Below, piece after piece: positions 4,988 through 57,922 of a stretch of 58,107 nt of DNA. Location of the stretch: the NCBI GenBank assembly GCA_964565065.1, contig CAZMDD010000132.1:1-58107 (forward strand), written 5' to 3'. Position numbers and translations under genes: made by a program. Within the stretch, counting starts at the first letter, position 1, and every line of letters begins with the position of its first letter. Source of the DNA: an uncultured Caldilineales bacterium. GTDB taxonomy: Bacteria > Chloroflexota > Anaerolineae > J102. The notes below the pieces were generated by a model. That model worked only from the letters and a program-made list of their open reading frames with translations. It made no database searches and was not told the origin of the DNA.

Positions 4988-5272
4988 GTTACTACTAAGG
5001 TAGCCCGGCTAGAAATCACTAAGACACGAAGCCACAAAGAAAGAAAAAGTGTCACTACTAAGGTAGCCCGGCTAGAAACCACGAAGACACGAAGCCACAA
5101 AGGCACGAAGAAAAGAAAAAGCTTTGAAATTCTTGGTGTTCTTAGTGTCTTTGCGCCTTTGTGGTGATTGAAGGCGGGTACGTTAGTCGTTACGAAAAAG
5201 TTTTGAAATGCTTGGTGTTCTTAGTGTCTTTGTGCCTTTGTGGTGATTGAAGTCGGGTACGTTAGTCGTTAC
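4988..5272 (+). mobile_element. MITE family A, outer copy interrupted by a second copy
   Basis: Starts GTTACTACTAAGGTAGCCCG, ends CGGGTACGTTAGTCGTTAC; 8-bp direct repeat TTTTTAGG at 4980-4987 and 5273-5280. Confidence 0.92.
5051..5193 (+). mobile_element. MITE family A, nested inner copy (143 bp)
   Basis: Full element; 8-bp direct repeat GAAAAAGT at 5043-5050 and 5194-5201. Confidence 0.92.
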
Positions 5273-5640
5273 TTTTTAGGATTCATTCTGGTTTGCATCT
5301 GGCGTTATTGCACAAAAGAAAACAGGAATGATTTATCCATAACTACTTGGGGCGAAAACCGCTGCCCGGTCTAATTTAATATCTTTCCGTACACAAATAC
5401 AGAAAACTCGGCGTGCAAGTCACACGGGCAACAATGACTCTAAACGGAAGACCAGGCAAAGGTGCGCCATATCTTCAGCGCCAAAATCAAATAGGCGGCT
5501 ACGTTTCAACTGTATGACTGCACAGGTGCTATCCTTGCAGTAGCGAATGCAACATGAGCGCATCGTGTCAACGATGGCAACCAACATCTCCGTAGTACCC
5601 GATGCCTGCTCAACTTCATCTCTTCCGATAGGTTTATCTC

Positions 5641-12312: not shown

Positions 12313-12454
12313 GTTACGACTAAGGTAGCCCGGCTAGAAACCACTAAGATACGAAGCCACAAAGGCACAAAGAAAGAAAAAGGTTTGAAATGCTTGGTGT
12401 TCTTAGTGTCTTTGTGCCTTTGTGGTGACTGAAGTCGGGGACGTTAGTCGTTAC
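12313..12454 (+). mobile_element. MITE family A copy (142 bp)
   Basis: 8-bp direct repeat TGAAAAAT at 12305-12312 and 12455-12462; the duplication includes the radical SAM stop codon. Confidence 0.93.
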
Positions 12455-39042: not shown

Positions 39043-39184
39043 GTTACTACTAAGGTAGCCAGGCTAGAAACCACTAAGACACGAAGCCACCAAGGCACAA
39101 AGAAAGAAAAAGGTTTGAAATGCTTGGTGTTCTTCGTGTCTTTGTGCCTTTGTGGTGATTGAAGTCGGATACGTTAGTCGTTAC
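39043..39184 (+). mobile_element. MITE family A copy (142 bp)
   Basis: 8-bp direct repeat AAAAGATG at 39035-39042 and 39185-39192. Confidence 0.93.
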
Positions 39185-39209
39185 AAAAGATGGCGCTTTT
39201 GATGCTTTG

Positions 39210-48652: not shown

Positions 48653-51600
48653 TCACGAAGTTATCCGGTCTTTCATCCATTTGGGGCGCACATGCCAAAA
48701 ACGGGGCAGCGCGCGCTCCCAATCCTGCAAAAGCTGGATTGCCAGCGGGCTTTGCGTGTGCGCAGCGTGCGCTTCTACCAACTCCCGTAGCAGCGTGGCA
48801 GCCGCATCCTCTTCGACTCGGGTGGCATAAACCAACTCGCTGTTCAACCGGGCCGGAAAACGGGGAGCGGCCTCATCATCCAGCACAAAAACCTGACCGC
48901 CCGTCATGCCTGCGCCAAAATTATTGCCCGTGGGGCCCAAAATCACCACCACGCCACCCGTCATGTACTCGCAGCCATGATCATCCACCCCCTCCACCAC
49001 CGCCCGAGCACGGCTGTTGCGCACGGCAAAACGCTCACCTGCCCGTCCCGCGGCAAAAAGCGCACCACCTGTCGCACCATACAAACAGGTATTGCCCATG
49101 ATGTACTGCGCATGCCAGGGGAAGATCGCCTCATCTTCCGGGCGCAGGGTGATGACCCCACCTGCCAACCCCTTTCCCACATAATCATTGGCCTCGCCCA
49201 TCAAATTGAACTGCAAGCCCTGGATTAGAAACGCACCAAACGATTGCCCCGCACTGCCGCGAAAAGTTACATCGATGGCCCTTTGCGGCAGCTCGGTGTA
49301 GCCCAATTGCGTCAGGCGCCCACTAACCCGAGCCCCCACCGCCCGATCGGTGTTGTAGATGGGAAACTCCCGGTGCATGGGAATTTTATCCAGCGCCAGC
49401 GCAGCCAAAGCAGCCTCGGCCACACGGTTGCCCAACGCATTGGGGGCATCATAATCGGGCCAAACTTTGAAATGCCGGGCGCTGCGAGGCTGCGGCTGAG
49501 CCAGCAATGGACTCAAATCCAGCGAATCCAGCGCCGCATCCCCCGTGCGTTTTTGCGTGAGTAAATCGGTGCGACCAATGACATCTTGCAAACGATGATA
49601 TCCCATTGCGGCCAGCAACTCCCGCACCTCTTGGGCGATGAAGGTGAACATCGCCATCACATGCTCCGGTTTACCCGGAAACTTGGCCCGCAGCTTGGGA
49701 TTTTGCGACGCCACGCCCACCGGGCAAGTATTGCGGTGGCATACCCGAGCCATGATACAACCCTCTGCAATCATGGCCAGCGTGCCAAATGAAACCTCAT
49801 CCGCGCCCAGCAGCGCAGCCAGCAGCACATCACGTCCGCCACGAATACCCCCATCGGTACGCAGGATGACCCGCTGCCGCAGGCCGTTCATACGCAACGC
49901 CTGCTGCGCCTCGGCCAGACCAATCTCCCAGGGCACGCCCGTATGTTTGATAGAGGTCAGCGGCGATGCACCTGTCCCCCCGTTGCTGCCCGAAATGAGA
50001 ATGCTGTTGGCCCGGCCTTTGGCCACGCCGGCAGCAATAGCTCCTACCCCGGCCTGGGCGACTAATTTGACCGAGATGTTGGCTTCGGGGTTGATTTGTC
50101 GCAAATCGTAAATGAGCTGCGACAAATCTTCGATGGAATAAATATCGTGATGCGGTGGGGGCGAAATCAGGGGTACGCCCGGCGTGGTTAAACGGATGGA
50201 GGCAATGAGGTCTGTCACCTTGTGCCCCGGCAAATGCCCGCCCTCACCCGGCTTGGAGCCCTGCGCCATTTTGATTTGTAGCTCTTTGGCCGAGATGAGA
50301 TACGCAGGAGTCACGCCAAAACGCCCGGAGGCAATTTGCTTAACAGCGCTGTTGCCCTCTGCTCCCAGGCGGGCCTCAGCCTCGCCCCCTTCGCCGCTGT
50401 TGGAAGCCGCGCCCAGCCGGTTCATGGCAATGGCCAACACCTCGTGGGCCTCGGGACTGAGTGCGCCCATCGACATGGCCGCGGTGCTAAACCGGCGCAC
50501 CAGCTCAGCCACAGGCTCCACCTCGTTCAGAGGAATAGATTTGCGGTCAGAGTGGATGCTGAGCAGGTCGCGCAGGTCGGTGGCAGGCTTTTGGGCCAAA
50601 CGCTGGCTGTATTGACGATAACGGGCATACGCAGCCTCGAAGTTTTCCTCCAGCGCCGCGGGCATACGCACTGCCTCGTGCAGAATGTCGATAATCTCGG
50701 GCGTGAGCGCATGAACCTCGCCTTGGCGTCGATATTTGAACTGTCCCCAATGCTCCAGTTTTTCGCTGGGTGAACGATAGGCCAATTGATGCCGATAGAA
50801 AAGATCGCTGGCCAACTTGTCGAAACCAATGCCACTGAGACGATTGGGAGTTCCGGTAAAGCAACGCTGCACCACAGCATCATCCAGGCCGATAATCTCG
50901 AAAATTTGGGCCCCGGTATAACTTTCTACCGTGCTGATGCCCATTTTGGACATAATTTTAAGCAGGCCCATCTCCAGCGCCCGCAGATAGTTTTTACGCG
51001 CGGTTTCAGGGGAATCGACACCTTTTAGCCGTTGGTCAGTAGCCAGATTACTGACAGTATCCAGCGCCAGCCAGGGATGCACTGCGTTGGCGCCATAGCC
51101 GATGAGCGCGGCCAGGCGATGCACGCTGACCACATCTCCAGCCTCTACCAGAATGCTGCCCCGGGTGCGCATGCCCTGGCGGATGAGATGTTGATGCACC
51201 GCGCCCACAGCCAGCAGCGCCGGCGCGGGCGCACGGGTGGGCCCGATGTTACGATCGCTTAGCAAAATCAGGTTGTGTCCGTGCGCAAAGGCTTCTTCCG
51301 CCTCCTGGCTGATGCGATCCAGCAGGTTGGTGAGCCCTGCCTCGCCCTCCACCACCGGAAAGGTGATGTCGATTTCGACCAATGAGAAGGGCAGACCATC
51401 GTGCGAATCATCGAAATGGGTGTGGCGGTCGCGGCGCAGTTGCCGCAAGAGTTGTAGGGTTTTAGCATCCAGGACCGGGGTTTTCAGGCTGATGAGACGG
51501 GCGTGGCGCGGGGTTTCATCAAAAATGTTGCGCCGCGTGCCTAGCAACATGCGCAACGACATGACCATTTTTTCCCGCAGGGGGTCGATGGGGGGATTGG

Positions 51601-53227
51601 TGACTTCGGCGAAGCGCTGATAAAAGTAGTGGTACAGCGGGCGTGGCAGATGCGACATCACCGCGGGAGGTGTGTCATCGCCCATGGCGCCGGTGGGCTC
51701 TTTGCCGCCGATGGCCATAGGTTTGAGCATGGCGCTGACCGATTCAACAGTGTGTCCAAAGGCCTGCTCCAGGGGCATCAGGTCGGAGATGCTGGTGTCG
51801 GAGGGGTCGAAGAGGGTGCCTTCTTCGTAGATGGGGATTTCGGGATGGGCGGCATCGCCATTTTCGTGGGGGATGCGCCGGATGGCCTGGGCCAGTTCAT
51901 CAATTTTGTAAAAGTTGCTCTTGCTCCACTGGGCGTAGGGACGCCGTCGGCTTACTTCCTGCTTGGTTTCATCGTTGAGCAGCAGCCGCCCGCGGAAGAT
52001 GTCTACCAGAAGCATTTGACCCGCGCCCAGTTTGCCCCGCCGCACAATCTGGCTAACCGGGATGGGCACAGCGCCGACTTCGGAGCTGGCAATGAGCAGG
52101 CCCTGGGAGGTGCGTTGGTAGCGCAGCGGGCGTAATCCATTGCGATCCAGCGAGGCACCGGCAACGCGGCCATCGGTAAAAACCAAGGCTGCGGGGCCAT
52201 CCCACGGCTCTGAGAGGGCGGCATGATAGCGATAAAAAGCACGCAGTTCGGGCGGCATGGCTTTGTTGTTTTCCCAGGCCTCAGGTGTAAGCATCATCAC
52301 CGCGTGGCGCAGGTCGCGGCCATTGCGCACCAGGGCCTCTACTGCGTTGTCCAGCATGGCGCTATCGGAGCCTGTTTCATCCAGGATGGGGATGATGGCT
52401 TTGCCCCAGGCATCCTCTTGCAATGCCCCGGCTCGGGCCCGCATCCAGTTGACATTGCCCTGGATGGTGTTGATTTCGCCATTGTGTCCCAGCAGGCGGA
52501 AGGGCTGGGCCCGACGCCAGGTGGGTACGGTGTTGGTGGCGTAGCGTTGATGATAGAGGACGATGGCGCTGCGGTAGTCGACATCAGCCAGATCTGGATA
52601 GAAGTTGGTAAGTTGCGAGCCCAGCATGAGTCCTTTGTAGACGATGGTGCGGCTGGAAAAGGATGAGATGTAAATGTCCAGGCCAGCGGCGGCAAATTCC
52701 CGCTCGATAGCCTTGCGGGCCAGGAAGAGGGTTTTTTCGAAGGGACGGTTGCGGTCCAGGAAGTCGGGGCGGGTCACAAAGGCTTGCCAGATTTCGGGCC
52801 GGGAGCTTTCGGCCACTGCACCCAGGGCATAAACGTTGACCGGTACTTGCCGCCAAGTGAGCATATCCAGTCCCAGAACTTGCAGCTCGTTGTGAACAAT
52901 TTGTTGCCACGGGCCCGAATTCATCCCCTGGGGAACAAAGAAGACGCCCGCGGCCAAATCGCCATATTTCATTTGCGGCAGTCCCAGCAGACGGCCAAAG
53001 AAACGGATGGGGATTTGAGTGAGGAGTCCGGCGCCATCGCCAGTTCCTGAGTCGGCTGCCACGCCTCCGCGGTGTTCCATGCCTGCCAGGGCCTCTACGG
53101 CCAGAGTAACAAGTTCATGGCTGCGGCGTCCCGGAATGTCTGCGATGAGGCCGATGCCGCAGGCGTCTTTGTCGTAGCTGGTGTTGTGCAGGGGGAGCGG
53201 TGTGGAATGAGGGCGATGTGCAAGCAT
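48653..53227 (-). CDS. gltB: Glutamate synthase large subunit
   Basis: DACGIG (mature N-terminal Cys), HNGEINT, EPWDGPA, KMAQGSKPGEGG, SPPPHHDIYSIEDL, CIMARVCHRNTCPVG, GERFAVRNS. Confidence 0.98.
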   Translation of the reverse strand: MLAHRPHSTPLPLHNTSYDKDACGIGLIADIPGRRSHELVTLAVEALAGMEHRGGVAADSGTGDGAGLLTQIPIRFFGRLLGLPQMKYGDLAAGVFFVPQGMNSGPWQQIVHNELQVLGLDMLTWRQVPVNVYALGAVAESSRPEIWQAFVTRPDFLDRNRPFEKTLFLARKAIEREFAAAGLDIYISSFSSRTIVYKGLMLGSQLTNFYPDLADVDYRSAIVLYHQRYATNTVPTWRRAQPFRLLGHNGEINTIQGNVNWMRARAGALQEDAWGKAIIPILDETGSDSAMLDNAVEALVRNGRDLRHAVMMLTPEAWENNKAMPPELRAFYRYHAALSEPWDGPAALVFTDGRVAGASLDRNGLRPLRYQRTSQGLLIASSEVGAVPIPVSQIVRRGKLGAGQMLLVDIFRGRLLLNDETKQEVSRRRPYAQWSKSNFYKIDELAQAIRRIPHENGDAAHPEIPIYEEGTLFDPSDTSISDLMPLEQAFGHTVESVSAMLKPMAIGGKEPTGAMGDDTPPAVMSHLPRPLYHYFYQRFAEVTNPPIDPLREKMVMSLRMLLGTRRNIFDETPRHARLISLKTPVLDAKTLQLLRQLRRDRHTHFDDSHDGLPFSLVEIDITFPVVEGEAGLTNLLDRISQEAEEAFAHGHNLILLSDRNIGPTRAPAPALLAVGAVHQHLIRQGMRTRGSILVEAGDVVSVHRLAALIGYGANAVHPWLALDTVSNLATDQRLKGVDSPETARKNYLRALEMGLLKIMSKMGISTVESYTGAQIFEIIGLDDAVVQRCFTGTPNRLSGIGFDKLASDLFYRHQLAYRSPSEKLEHWGQFKYRRQGEVHALTPEIIDILHEAVRMPAALEENFEAAYARYRQYSQRLAQKPATDLRDLLSIHSDRKSIPLNEVEPVAELVRRFSTAAMSMGALSPEAHEVLAIAMNRLGAASNSGEGGEAEARLGAEGNSAVKQIASGRFGVTPAYLISAKELQIKMAQGSKPGEGGHLPGHKVTDLIASIRLTTPGVPLISPPPHHDIYSIEDLSQLIYDLRQINPEANISVKLVAQAGVGAIAAGVAKGRANSILISGSNGGTGASPLTSIKHTGVPWEIGLAEAQQALRMNGLRQRVILRTDGGIRGGRDVLLAALLGADEVSFGTLAMIAEGCIMARVCHRNTCPVGVASQNPKLRAKFPGKPEHVMAMFTFIAQEVRELLAAMGYHRLQDVIGRTDLLTQKRTGDAALDSLDLSPLLAQPQPRSARHFKVWPDYDAPNALGNRVAEAALAALALDKIPMHREFPIYNTDRAVGARVSGRLTQLGYTELPQRAIDVTFRGSAGQSFGAFLIQGLQFNLMGEANDYVGKGLAGGVITLRPEDEAIFPWHAQYIMGNTCLYGATGGALFAAGRAGERFAVRNSRARAVVEGVDDHGCEYMTGGVVVILGPTGNNFGAGMTGGQVFVLDDEAAPRFPARLNSELVYATRVEEDAAATLLRELVEAHAAHTQSPLAIQLLQDWERALPRFWHVRPKWMKDRITS

Positions 53228-53263
53228 AAAGGGCTCCGGGAAAGGCGAATAGTTACGAAATGC

Positions 53264-53461
53264 GTAACGACTAAGTGGTTTGCAATAAGTTTCCTAATTC
53301 CAAATTGCGAGCTTGTCATTTTTCCATGACGAAGATGGACCCAATTAGACGAATATCAAAGCCTGCTTTTTAGGGCAGAAAAGTCGCACATCAGGTTCTC
53401 TTTGTGCCTTTGTGGCTTCGTGGCTTAGTGGTTTCTAGCCGGGCTACCTTAGTGTCGTAAC
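53264..53461 (-). mobile_element. MITE family A variant (198 bp) with a different internal segment
   Basis: Minus strand begins GTTACGACACTAAGGTAGCCCGGCTAG and ends TTAGTCGTTAC; 8-bp direct repeat CGAAATGC at 53256-53263 and 53462-53469. Confidence 0.88.
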
Positions 53462-53502
53462 CGAAATGCAAAGAATGGGAGGGAAGGTGGCAGTGTCAGG
53501 TG

Positions 53503-53541
53503 AAAAAGGAAAGCCCCTGGTTGCGAGGTGCGACCAGGGGC
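53503..53541 (-). terminator. Intrinsic terminator after the molybdoenzyme gene
   Basis: GCCCCTGGTTGC/GCGACCAGGGGC stem, T-rich tail on the minus strand. Confidence 0.7.
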
Positions 53542-53581
53542 GACATTGCCAGGTTGTTTTGTTGATTTTATTTTATCATAG

Positions 53582-55804
53582 CTATGGGGACGGAGCAAAT
53601 GAGTCTGTGTTGGGGATTGGGCTGTTGCTGGCGCTCGGAGGCGCGGGCGCATGATGCGCGGGCGCATGATGCGCGGGCGCGAGGGTGACTTGGGTGTCGT
53701 AGAAGGTGGGACTGCCGCCCATGTCGGTTTGGGCTTGCGAGGTGAGCCAGTTGATGTTGCGGGTGTCGGGGCTGAGTTTGGCCCACCAGATGGTGGGGGT
53801 GAGCAGGGTTCCGGGGATGATGTCGGTGGTAACGCGGGCGCTGAGCTGGATTCGGCCGTGCTGGTTCTGGAGGATGACAGTTTGGCGGTGGTGGATGTTG
53901 CGGGCGCGGGCGTCGTCGGGATGTATCCACACCAGGGGTTCTTCTTCGCGGTGTCGAAAGCGCTTGAGGTTGGCGAAGGTGGTGTTGAGGAAGTTGTGGG
54001 CGGGTGGGGAGATGAGGGTGAGTGGGGCGTCGGGGGTTGGTGTGCTGTTGGCGGTTTGTGGCGCTTGCAGCCAGTTGGGAGGCGTCCAGGTTGGCAGGGG
54101 CGGGTAGCCGTCGTCGGCCATTTGTTGGCTATAAAGTTGGCATTTGCCATCGGGGGTCGGAAAGCCGCGGGCAAAGGGGGTGTAGGGTTGGGGCAGATTG
54201 AGACGGACAAAGCCTTCATTCAGCAGGCGCTGCCAGGTGATGGTTTGCATGGTGGGGTCGGTTTGGCTGGCCAGGAAGTTTTGCAGGAGGGTGGTGTCAT
54301 CTTGCCGGAAGTGGGCATCGGTGAAGCCCATGGCCCGGGCAAGGTGACGGAAGATTTCGCTGTTGGGCAGGCTTTGGCCCACCGGGGCGATGGCGGGACG
54401 GTTGAGCGCGAGGTAGGTGTGTCCGTAGGGTTTGAGGATGTCCCAGTGTTCGAGCTGGGTGGTGGCGGGCAACAGGTAGTCGGCGTAGTCTGCAGTGTCG
54501 GTCTGGAAGTGTTCGAGGACGATGGTAAGCAGGTCTTCGCGAGCCAAACCGGCGTGAACGGCGTTTTGATCAGGCGCCACCGCGGCGGGGTTGCTATTGT
54601 AGATGATGAGGGCTTTGATGGGCGGGCCGGCCTCTGCGGGTGCGGGGCTGGGGTCGATGGGTCTGGGTGCATGATGGGCGCGGGCGCGGCGGGCGGGATC
54701 AAGGCTGAGTGCGTCGCCCAGGCGAATCATGTTGAGGGTGCGGGGTTGTTGGCCGTGCAGAAGGTCGGGGCGTTTGAGGGGGGTTTTATCCAGATGAAAG
54801 GCGCCGCTGCTGCTGAGCAGGACGCCTCCGCCTGGGTAACGCCAGTGGCCGACCAACGCGGGCAGTGTGGCGATGTTCCGCACGGCCATGCCGCCGGCGG
54901 CGTGGCGTTGCAGGCCATAGTTGATGCGGATGGCAGCGGGCCGGGCCGCTGCGTAGGCTTTTGCCAGGGAAATGATGCGCTGGGCGGGGATAGTGGTGAT
55001 GTTTTGGGCCCACGCGGGTGTAAAATCTCCAATATGGTTTTGTAGTTGCTCGAAGCCGGTGGTGTACGCCCGAACGTAGGGCTCGTCGATGAGGTTTTGG
55101 GTGATGATGACGTGCATCATGGCCAGGGCCAACGCGCCATCGGTGCCGGGGCGGATGGGGATCCATTCGTCGGCGGCGCGGGCGGTGCGGGTGCGAGCGG
55201 GGTCGATGACGATGACGGGGGCGCCTTTTTTGCGGGCCTGCTGGATGAAGGGCCACAGGTGCATGTTGCTGCTGAGGATGTTACTGCCCCAGATGAGGAT
55301 GAGGCGGGCGTGGGCGAAGTCTTCGGGCGCGGGCCCGATGACGCGTCCGGTGACATATTGAAAGCCTTCGAAGCCTGCTTCGGAGCAGATGGTGCGGGCG
55401 AGACGGGTGGCTCCCAGGCGGTGGAAGAAGGGTTTGGCCATGCCTTCACCTTGCAGCAGGCCCATGGTTCCGGCGTAGGAGTAGGGCATGATGGCCTCGG
55501 GCCCGTGGCGGGCGCTGATGGCTTGCAGGCGGGCGCTGATTTCGGCCACAGCCTGCTGCCAGCTAATGGGCCGAAATTGTCCTGCGCCTTTGGGGCCCAC
55601 ACGTTTGAGGGGCGTGGTGAGGCGGTCGGGATGGTAGGTGCGCTCCAGGTAGCGATCTACTTTGCCGCACAGCCGTCCCTGGGTGATGGGATGCTGGGGG
55701 TGGCCCTGGATGCGGATGGCGCGTCCGGTGGCGGGGTCAGTGGTGATTTGCCAGGAGCAGGTGTCGGGGCAGTCGTGCGGGCATACGCCGGTGATGGTAG
55801 GCAT
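53582..55804 (-). CDS. Molybdopterin (bis-MGD) oxidoreductase, DMSO-reductase family, cytoplasmic
   Basis: [13 protein letters not shown] Fe-S motif, [44 protein letters not shown]; no Tat signal; start at ATG 55804. Confidence 0.93.
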
Positions 55805-55888
55805 GGTGGATATTGGAGATTCGGTGCTGGAGTTTCGCGGCGGTAACGATTTACGCATTTCTTCACCCGTATTGTCCGTTCGCTGCGG

Positions 55889-57779: not shown

Positions 57780-57922
57780 GTTACTACTAAGGTAGCGCGG
57801 CTAGAAACCACTAAGACACGAAGCCACAAAGGCACGAAGGAAAGAAAAAGGTTTGAAATGCTTGGTGTTCTTAGTGTCTTTGTGCCTTTGTGGCGATTGA
57901 AGTCGGGTACGTTAGTCGTTAC
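57780..57922 (+). mobile_element. MITE family A copy (143 bp) without matching target duplication
   Basis: Both ends intact; flanks CTTTTTGA and CATGGAAG do not match. Confidence 0.9.

Follow-up and report, generated by a model that had tools for sequence, protein, structure and literature searches.

Nested or composite MITEs (MITE-in-MITE) are described mainly in plants and cyanobacteria, and it is known that promoters can arise from IS-type and MITE-type elements. The Correia elements of Neisseria, ERIC and the RUP/BOX families are short non-coding mobile repeats that are located in 5′ UTRs and form part of the mRNA, and effects of these families (promoters, RNase III sites, mRNA stability) are documented. 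The element analyzed here, a 198-bp non-coding insertion in front of the glutamate synthase gene gltB of an uncultured Caldilineales bacterium, can be compared with both groups. It shares with nested MITEs the presence of one element in another, an internal deletion and mobilisation by the outer termini, but it differs in that three families are involved and that one of them, repeat B, is repeatedly found on the same TA of the terminal repeat of MITE A (6 of 13 copies). Similarly, it resembles the Correia, ERIC and RUP/BOX repeats as a short non-coding mobile repeat in a 5′ UTR, but no such effect is predicted for it. We conclude that the element is an ordinary nested, internally deleted MITE composite.

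Two further systems are relevant to this locus. IS66 elements have terminal repeats starting with GTAA and 8-bp target duplications (PMC11946415), and this description is considered below for MITE A. The antiterminators targeted by ANTAR proteins have hexaloops with A at position 1 (A1) and G at position 4 (G4), and frequently precede nitrogen genes such as those of glutamate synthase (Ramesh et al. 2012, PMC3369931). The latter comparison concerns the gltB leader and not the MITE.

Structure of the element upstream of gltB

The window, which is the whole 58,107-nucleotide (nt) stretch analyzed, corresponds to contig C132 of a MAG of 2.92 Mb in 160 contigs. Its GltB sequence places it in an uncultured Chloroflexota lineage, and the named records most similar to it are MAGs labelled Caldilineales and Anaerolineae. 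In this window, gltB is located on the minus strand (48653-53227) and encodes the glutamate synthase large subunit of 1524 amino acids with the Pfam domains GATase_2, Glu_syn_central, Glu_synthase and GXGXG. Its ribosome-binding site (RBS), GGAG, is at 53234-53237 on the same strand, 6 nt before the ATG. The composite element occupies 53264-53461, has the termini of MITE A at its ends, and is made of pieces from three different MITE-type families. Its end is separated from the ATG of gltB by 36 nt (53228-53263), or by 28 nt when the target duplication is taken as part of the element. The 8-mer CGAAATGC is present at 53256-53263 and, as a perfect 8/8 match, at 53462-53469; these flanking copies are its only two occurrences in the 58-kb window, and the chance of such a match at the gltB element is approximately 1.5 × 10-5.

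From the gltB side, the first part of the element is GTAACGACTA (53264-53273, minus strand), the last 10 nt of the right terminal repeat of A, which is the reverse complement of the right terminus of A. This is followed by nt 1-81 of the 184-nt repeat B (53274-53354, plus strand; 96% identity by BLAST to the copy at G000:C94:3770-3953), by nt 106-147 of the 147-nt repeat C (53355-53396, plus strand; 97.6% identity to G000:C47:17709-17855), and by the left arm of A, approximately nt 62 to 1 (53397-53461, minus strand), the reverse complement of which is 93-96% identical to other A copies. Thus, of A the element retains only the 10 nt of the right end and the left arm. The B fragment begins at the genuine 5′ terminus of B, AGTRG, and abuts the TA that is located 10 nt inside the A terminal repeat, and the C fragment stops at the genuine 3′ terminus of C, ...CACATCAGGT, and abuts the central A-rich loop of A. 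In the left arm, the terminal repeat is interrupted by an additional AC (GTTACGAC[AC]TAAGG), and an A terminus bearing this AC is found once in the genome compared with 236 normal termini.

The original prediction, made from the letters of the window, described a MITE with an 8-bp target duplication in which about 120 bp of unrelated AT-rich DNA replaces the right arm, and which is the only minus-strand copy, co-oriented with gltB and 36 bp from its start codon. This description of the structure was confirmed. The ends match A, the interior (53274-53396) is 123 bp with 41% G+C against 56% for the window and gives no alignment to MITE A, and the five other A copies in the window are all on the plus strand. 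Genome-wide, 124 A copies are in plus and 121 in minus orientation, and therefore the minus orientation of the copy in the gltB leader carries no signal.

The size and the lack of coding capacity are those of a MITE, as the open reading frames (ORFs) across the 198 bp are spurious ones only, overlapping the gltB start. The terminal inverted repeats are shared with the family, and the 8-bp target duplication has the length typical of the family. The element is not a cargo-carrying transposon of the mobile insertion cassette type, since its interior consists of the B and C fragments, with no ORF and no Rfam family. An Rfam search of the gltB region and of full B, C and composite copies gave matches at chance level only.

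The composite is a singleton in the genome. Comparison with relatives having an empty site was proposed with the original prediction. Two metagenome scans and a look-up of the exact protein, in which near-identical records may be absent, returned neither an empty site nor an identical allele. A gltB spacer of variable length was seen across 16 genomes, as described below. Synteny gave no empty site, as gltB and the upstream gene of congeners are on separate contigs and the spacer is unalignable. The element-free junction would read ...TTTGCATTTCG joined straight to TAACTATTCG.

Repeat families contributing to the composite

MITE A is a 142-bp palindrome with the termini GTTACGACTAAGG...CGTTAGTCGTTAC and 8-bp AT-rich target duplications. 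In the genome, BLAST detected 408 segments of A, including 256 full-length copies, and these cover approximately 49 kb. Perfect 8-bp duplications were found in 126 of the 245 testable copies, and duplications with one mismatch in a further 43. The other copies in the window are a nested pair (approximately 4989-5273) and those at 12313-12454, 39044-39185 and 57781-57922. The last of these is without a matching duplication (CTTTTTGA vs CATGGAAG). Arms similar to A are present in five congeners, and neither B nor C was detected there.

The termini of A (GTAAC/GTTAC) and its 8-bp duplications correspond to those of IS66 elements. In the congener G010, we found a terminus, GTAACTACTAAGGTAGCCCG, that is identical to the repeat of A at 19 of 20 positions, and an IS66-family transposase gene (DUF6444, zf-IS66, DDE_Tnp_IS66) starts approximately 90 nt behind it. 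This gene is frameshifted and truncated at its 3′ end, and the degraded element, of which one end is seen, is located on the minus strand of L070 (G010:C180), at approximately 1213-2638. Another congener, G001, has a terminus related to that of A, GTAACTATACAGGTAGGC, at L080:1116 (G001:C116), with a transposase (44% identical) behind it; here also one end is seen. Both of these degraded elements are candidate relatives of the missing parent. Because of these congener termini ahead of IS66 transposases, together with the GTAA repeats and the 8-bp duplications, MITE A is best read, from its sequence, as an IS66-type miniature element. It differs from IS66-family IS in that its repeat is GTWACKACTAAGG and not GTAAGCG, and in that no IS66 transposase is present in this assembly. 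Pfam searches of the assembly found no IS66 or TnpB transposase, tblastn with the G010 transposase was also empty, and when all A-type termini were paired, no pair delimited an element of more than 400 bp flanked by a matching duplication.

The interior of the gltB element was thought to be either a remnant of the parental IS or captured DNA, and neither suggestion held. No similarity was found between the interior and the G010 element, the only IS66-type element found with the terminus of A, and therefore the interior is not an IS relic. BLAST of the interior against the genome, which had been proposed as a check, matched repeat families B and C; hence, it is not unique DNA and consists of fragments of multi-copy repeats.

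Repeat B is 184 nt long and has approximately 13 copies in the genome with 94-100% identity (the copy on C94 cited above, L075, serves as reference). It has no clear terminal inverted repeats and is always preceded by TA. Eight of the 13 copies are inside MITE A, including the six at the same TA of its terminal repeat. The junction of 10 nt of A with B seen in the gltB element recurs at five loci (G000 C38, C69, C135, C152 and C138), and the B copies have too few variable sites to separate repeated targeting from common descent of this junction. Repeat C, of approximately 147 nt, is present in about 12-15 copies that are more diverged than those of B, with copies on G000 C47 (17709-17855, the reference, L076), C48, C99, C66, C124, C83, C78 and C5. 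It is characterized by GACGAA/TTCGTC hairpin arms, a small subterminal hairpin and the conserved end ...AAAAGTCRCACATCAGGT. Hairpin motifs rich in GACGAA/TTCGTC are common to B and C, and the two families are related. A copy on C69 is a hybrid in which B-type and C-type sequences are fused.

Composites of this kind are found elsewhere in the genome. The same composite, made of an A stub, nt 1-51 of B and a complete A, is present at G000:C152:12897-13094 (L078) and at G000:C138:9132-9328. The two are at different sites and are flanked by separate perfect 8-bp duplications, TTTTGTTT and TGCAAAAG, and therefore such composites transpose as units via their outer ends. Nested repeats within outer duplications were also observed in the A copies on C32 and C40 (both perfect, 8/8) and on C68 (6/8).

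A fourth repeat, D, was observed in the same genome. It is a 175-bp G+C-rich MITE with the termini GTAACTGCTAAGG...GCAGTTAC, which resemble those of A and share GTAAC with them. Copies of D are at G000:C154:6193-6368, C124:788, C135:4593, C98:315 and C40:6532. D is usually located in the central loop of A, and its hairpins also stand alone at approximately 20 sites. It breaks the assembly at the contig ends of C22, C28 and C82.

The gltB leader and the position of the element

Upstream of the element, on the minus strand, is the gene of a molybdopterin oxidoreductase of 758 amino acids (53582-55858; Pfam Molybdop_Fe4S4, Molybdopterin and Molydop_binding). The predicted promoter of the gltB leader (53570-53598) overlaps the 3′ end of this gene, whose stop codon is inside the promoter spacer. 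This minus-strand promoter consists of a -35 box TTGCTC (53598-53593), a 17-nt spacer and TG-n-TAAAAT with the -10 box at 53575-53570. Approximately 12 nt after the inferred transcription start, the window has an ANTAR-type P2 mini-hairpin, GGC-AAUGUC-GCC (53539-53550, minus strand), with A1 and G4 in the hexaloop, and the GCC of its 3′ side is the start of the stem of an intrinsic terminator (53503-53541, minus strand). The terminator has the stem GCCCCUGGU/ACCAGGGGC (53541-53513) followed by the U-run UUUCCUUUUU (53512-53503), with -22.2 kcal/mol. It also ends the upstream molybdoenzyme gene.

This leader unit, a -10 box followed by one or two hexaloop hairpins and an overlapping terminator, is located before gltB in 16 genomes from nine genera of the family (the window, L016, L017, L018, L019, L020, L023, L024, L035, L042, L056, L058, L059, L060, L062 and L063), in which the upstream neighbors are non-syntenic. 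All 16 have a -10 box, TAnAAT (TATAGT in L018) and often with the extended TG, 19-52 nt upstream of the hairpin. The GGC, the G4 of the loop and the GCC are invariant, and A1 is found throughout the genus of the window and in most loops overall. Likewise, the GCCCCUG...CAGGGGC terminator stem is invariant and followed by a U-run. Genomes of other genera have a second hexaloop hairpin approximately 17 nt upstream, for example GGCACUGACGCC, and both hairpins are present in L024, L056, L058-L060, L062 and L063. The window and its genus have P2 only, the first hairpin being missing. A search for the leader hairpin motif in the genome found only the gltB copy.

The genome encodes one REC-ANTAR protein of 201 amino acids (G000:C125, L064:1087-1689), the gene of which follows a HisKA_2 kinase gene (L064:2-1087) with overlapping stop and start codons, and such a regulator is present in 26 of the 28 family genomes. 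The leader thus resembles the known ANTAR leaders (EutV/eut, NasR/nasF and AmiR/amiE; PMC3369931) in its small hexaloop hairpin with A1 and G4, in the overlap of the terminator-proximal (second) hairpin with an intrinsic terminator, in the nitrogen-assimilation gene downstream and in the REC-ANTAR regulator in the genome. It differs from them in that the genus of the window has the terminator-proximal hairpin only, with a terminator overlap of 3 nt. Enforcing P2 removes three of the nine outer pairs and leaves a 6+2-bp stem, and the folding energy is then -16.1 compared with -22.5 kcal/mol. Because of the single hairpin and the 3-nt overlap, membership in the ANTAR class is only partial in this genus. 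On these sequence features, the gltB leader appears to be an ANTAR-type attenuator of a known kind, with ANTAR control of gltB as the putative consequence. Two other interpretations of the leader were rejected: a leader peptide, as the ATG inside GGCAAUG is not conserved and is ACG in most relatives, and a sigma-54 promoter formed by TGGCA...GCC, as the spacing does not fit.

The composite element is located in the spacer between this attenuator and the RBS, and the promoter and hairpin/terminator (53503-53598) are intact. The original prediction that the insertion occupies the promoter/leader of gltB is therefore correct for the leader and not for the promoter, which is conserved upstream. 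The distance from the U-run of the terminator to the ATG is 275 nt with the element and would be 69 nt without it, a difference of 206 nt. In the relatives, this spacer ranges from approximately 30 to approximately 280 nt, and in L024, which belongs to another genus, it has a (CAGTATT)n tandem array of about eight units. These observations indicate that the spacer tolerates changes of length. The terminator of L016 and L018 is followed by the ATG after only about 30-36 nt, and gltB must therefore be transcribed through it.

The suggestion that the insertion supplies a new regulatory input was not borne out by the predictions. No sigma70-like promoter facing gltB was found in the element or at its junction at the scan threshold, and the best candidate by manual reading had 7 of 12 matches. 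The predicted unpaired probability of the region from the RBS to the ATG was 0.45 with the insert and 0.44 without it. The one feature of the element that might reduce read-through is a weak hairpin resembling a terminator, formed by the C fragment (53379-53362, minus strand).

Origin of the composite and alternative explanations

We consider it likely that the element is a nested composite of three non-autonomous families that has since decayed, and that it is a tolerated passenger in the 5′ leader of gltB. The order of events can be proposed from the junctions. B would have inserted at the TA 10 nt inside the right terminal repeat of A, and C into the central A-rich loop of A, after which an illegitimate deletion from nt 81 of B to nt 106 of C would have removed the rest of B, the whole right arm of A and most of C. 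The three steps may have occurred at the gltB site itself, or in a donor copy, which would then have moved there as a unit; since the composite is a singleton, unit transposition and in-place decay give the same picture. Movement of A would depend on a transposase acting in trans. The gltB transcript probably includes the element, as approximately 206 extra nt of the 5′ UTR. As it is inserted in the length-variable spacer, the regulatory module and the RBS of gltB are intact.

One idea, a true cargo-carrying MITE that holds either what remains of the autonomous parent IS or host DNA captured as a unique sequence, is suggested by the family A termini and duplication around an interior foreign to A. 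It is already largely refuted and we regard it as very improbable, because both interior segments are multi-copy repeats having their own termini elsewhere, match no Rfam family, lack coding capacity, and are unlike the IS66-type element bearing the terminus of A. An error of assembly deserves somewhat more weight, although we find it quite unlikely as well. The MAG consists of 160 contigs, many of which end in A or D repeats, and none of the three segments reaches the length of a typical read, so that an assembler threading through collapsed repeats might have replaced a normal A or a simpler A::B with a chimera. However, as the whole element is 198 bp, several junctions would fall within one read or one long k-mer. 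The two points at which the interior joins A also make biological sense as insertion sites and are seen again at other loci, and the A arm has its private 2-nt insertion.

The remaining alternatives concern function. The element might be a regulatory insertion whose promoter, or a different cis signal, circumvents or alters the nitrogen control of gltB. As the element is only 36 nt from the ATG, beyond the attenuator, an outward promoter in it would escape attenuation, the creation of promoters by IS and MITE elements is generally known, and the weak hairpin within the element could act on read-through. The absence of a sigma70-like hexamer pair toward gltB at the scan threshold (7 of 12 at best by hand), the intact conserved promoter and attenuator upstream, the naturally variable spacer of the relatives and the unchanged predicted accessibility of the RBS make this explanation unlikely, if less so than an assembly error. 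Selection for disarmament was also considered: a full palindromic A in the leader of the essential gltB would block read-through, and only a copy without one arm would persist. The predicted RNA folding is consistent with this in that the canonical A gives -58 or -47 kcal/mol over 142 nt, compared with -45.5 for the 198-nt variant. We nevertheless give this little credence, since there is a single case and no statistics, modelled canonical insertions keep the RBS accessible (0.42-0.43, not lowered), and composites with a deleted arm occur also away from leaders.

A more speculative extension of the nested-composite reading, which we think possible but doubtful, is that B is a 'parasite of a parasite' that prefers one TA in the terminal repeat of A and is carried by the IS66-type transposase of A, with the gltB copy as a decayed product. 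The end of A::B reads GTAACGACTAAG-TAG, which is close to the other terminus of A, GTTACGACTAAGGTAG. It is less likely still that, in addition to such hitch-hiking of B, the loss of the hairpin arm of A was selected for read-through of the ANTAR-controlled gltB transcript.

The decayed nested composite therefore represents mainly a gain in annotation: what appeared to be a MITE with captured DNA in the promoter of a nitrogen gene is a pile-up of three repeats in a permissive 5′ UTR. MITE A belongs with the IS66-type elements of the genus, as far as its termini and duplications indicate, and, in this MITE-rich Chloroflexota genome, composites with approximately 10-12 nt of an A terminus at the boundary have kept the ability to move. 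The ANTAR-type attenuator before gltB, which is found family-wide, frames the question of whether mobile DNA in the leader alters nitrogen control.
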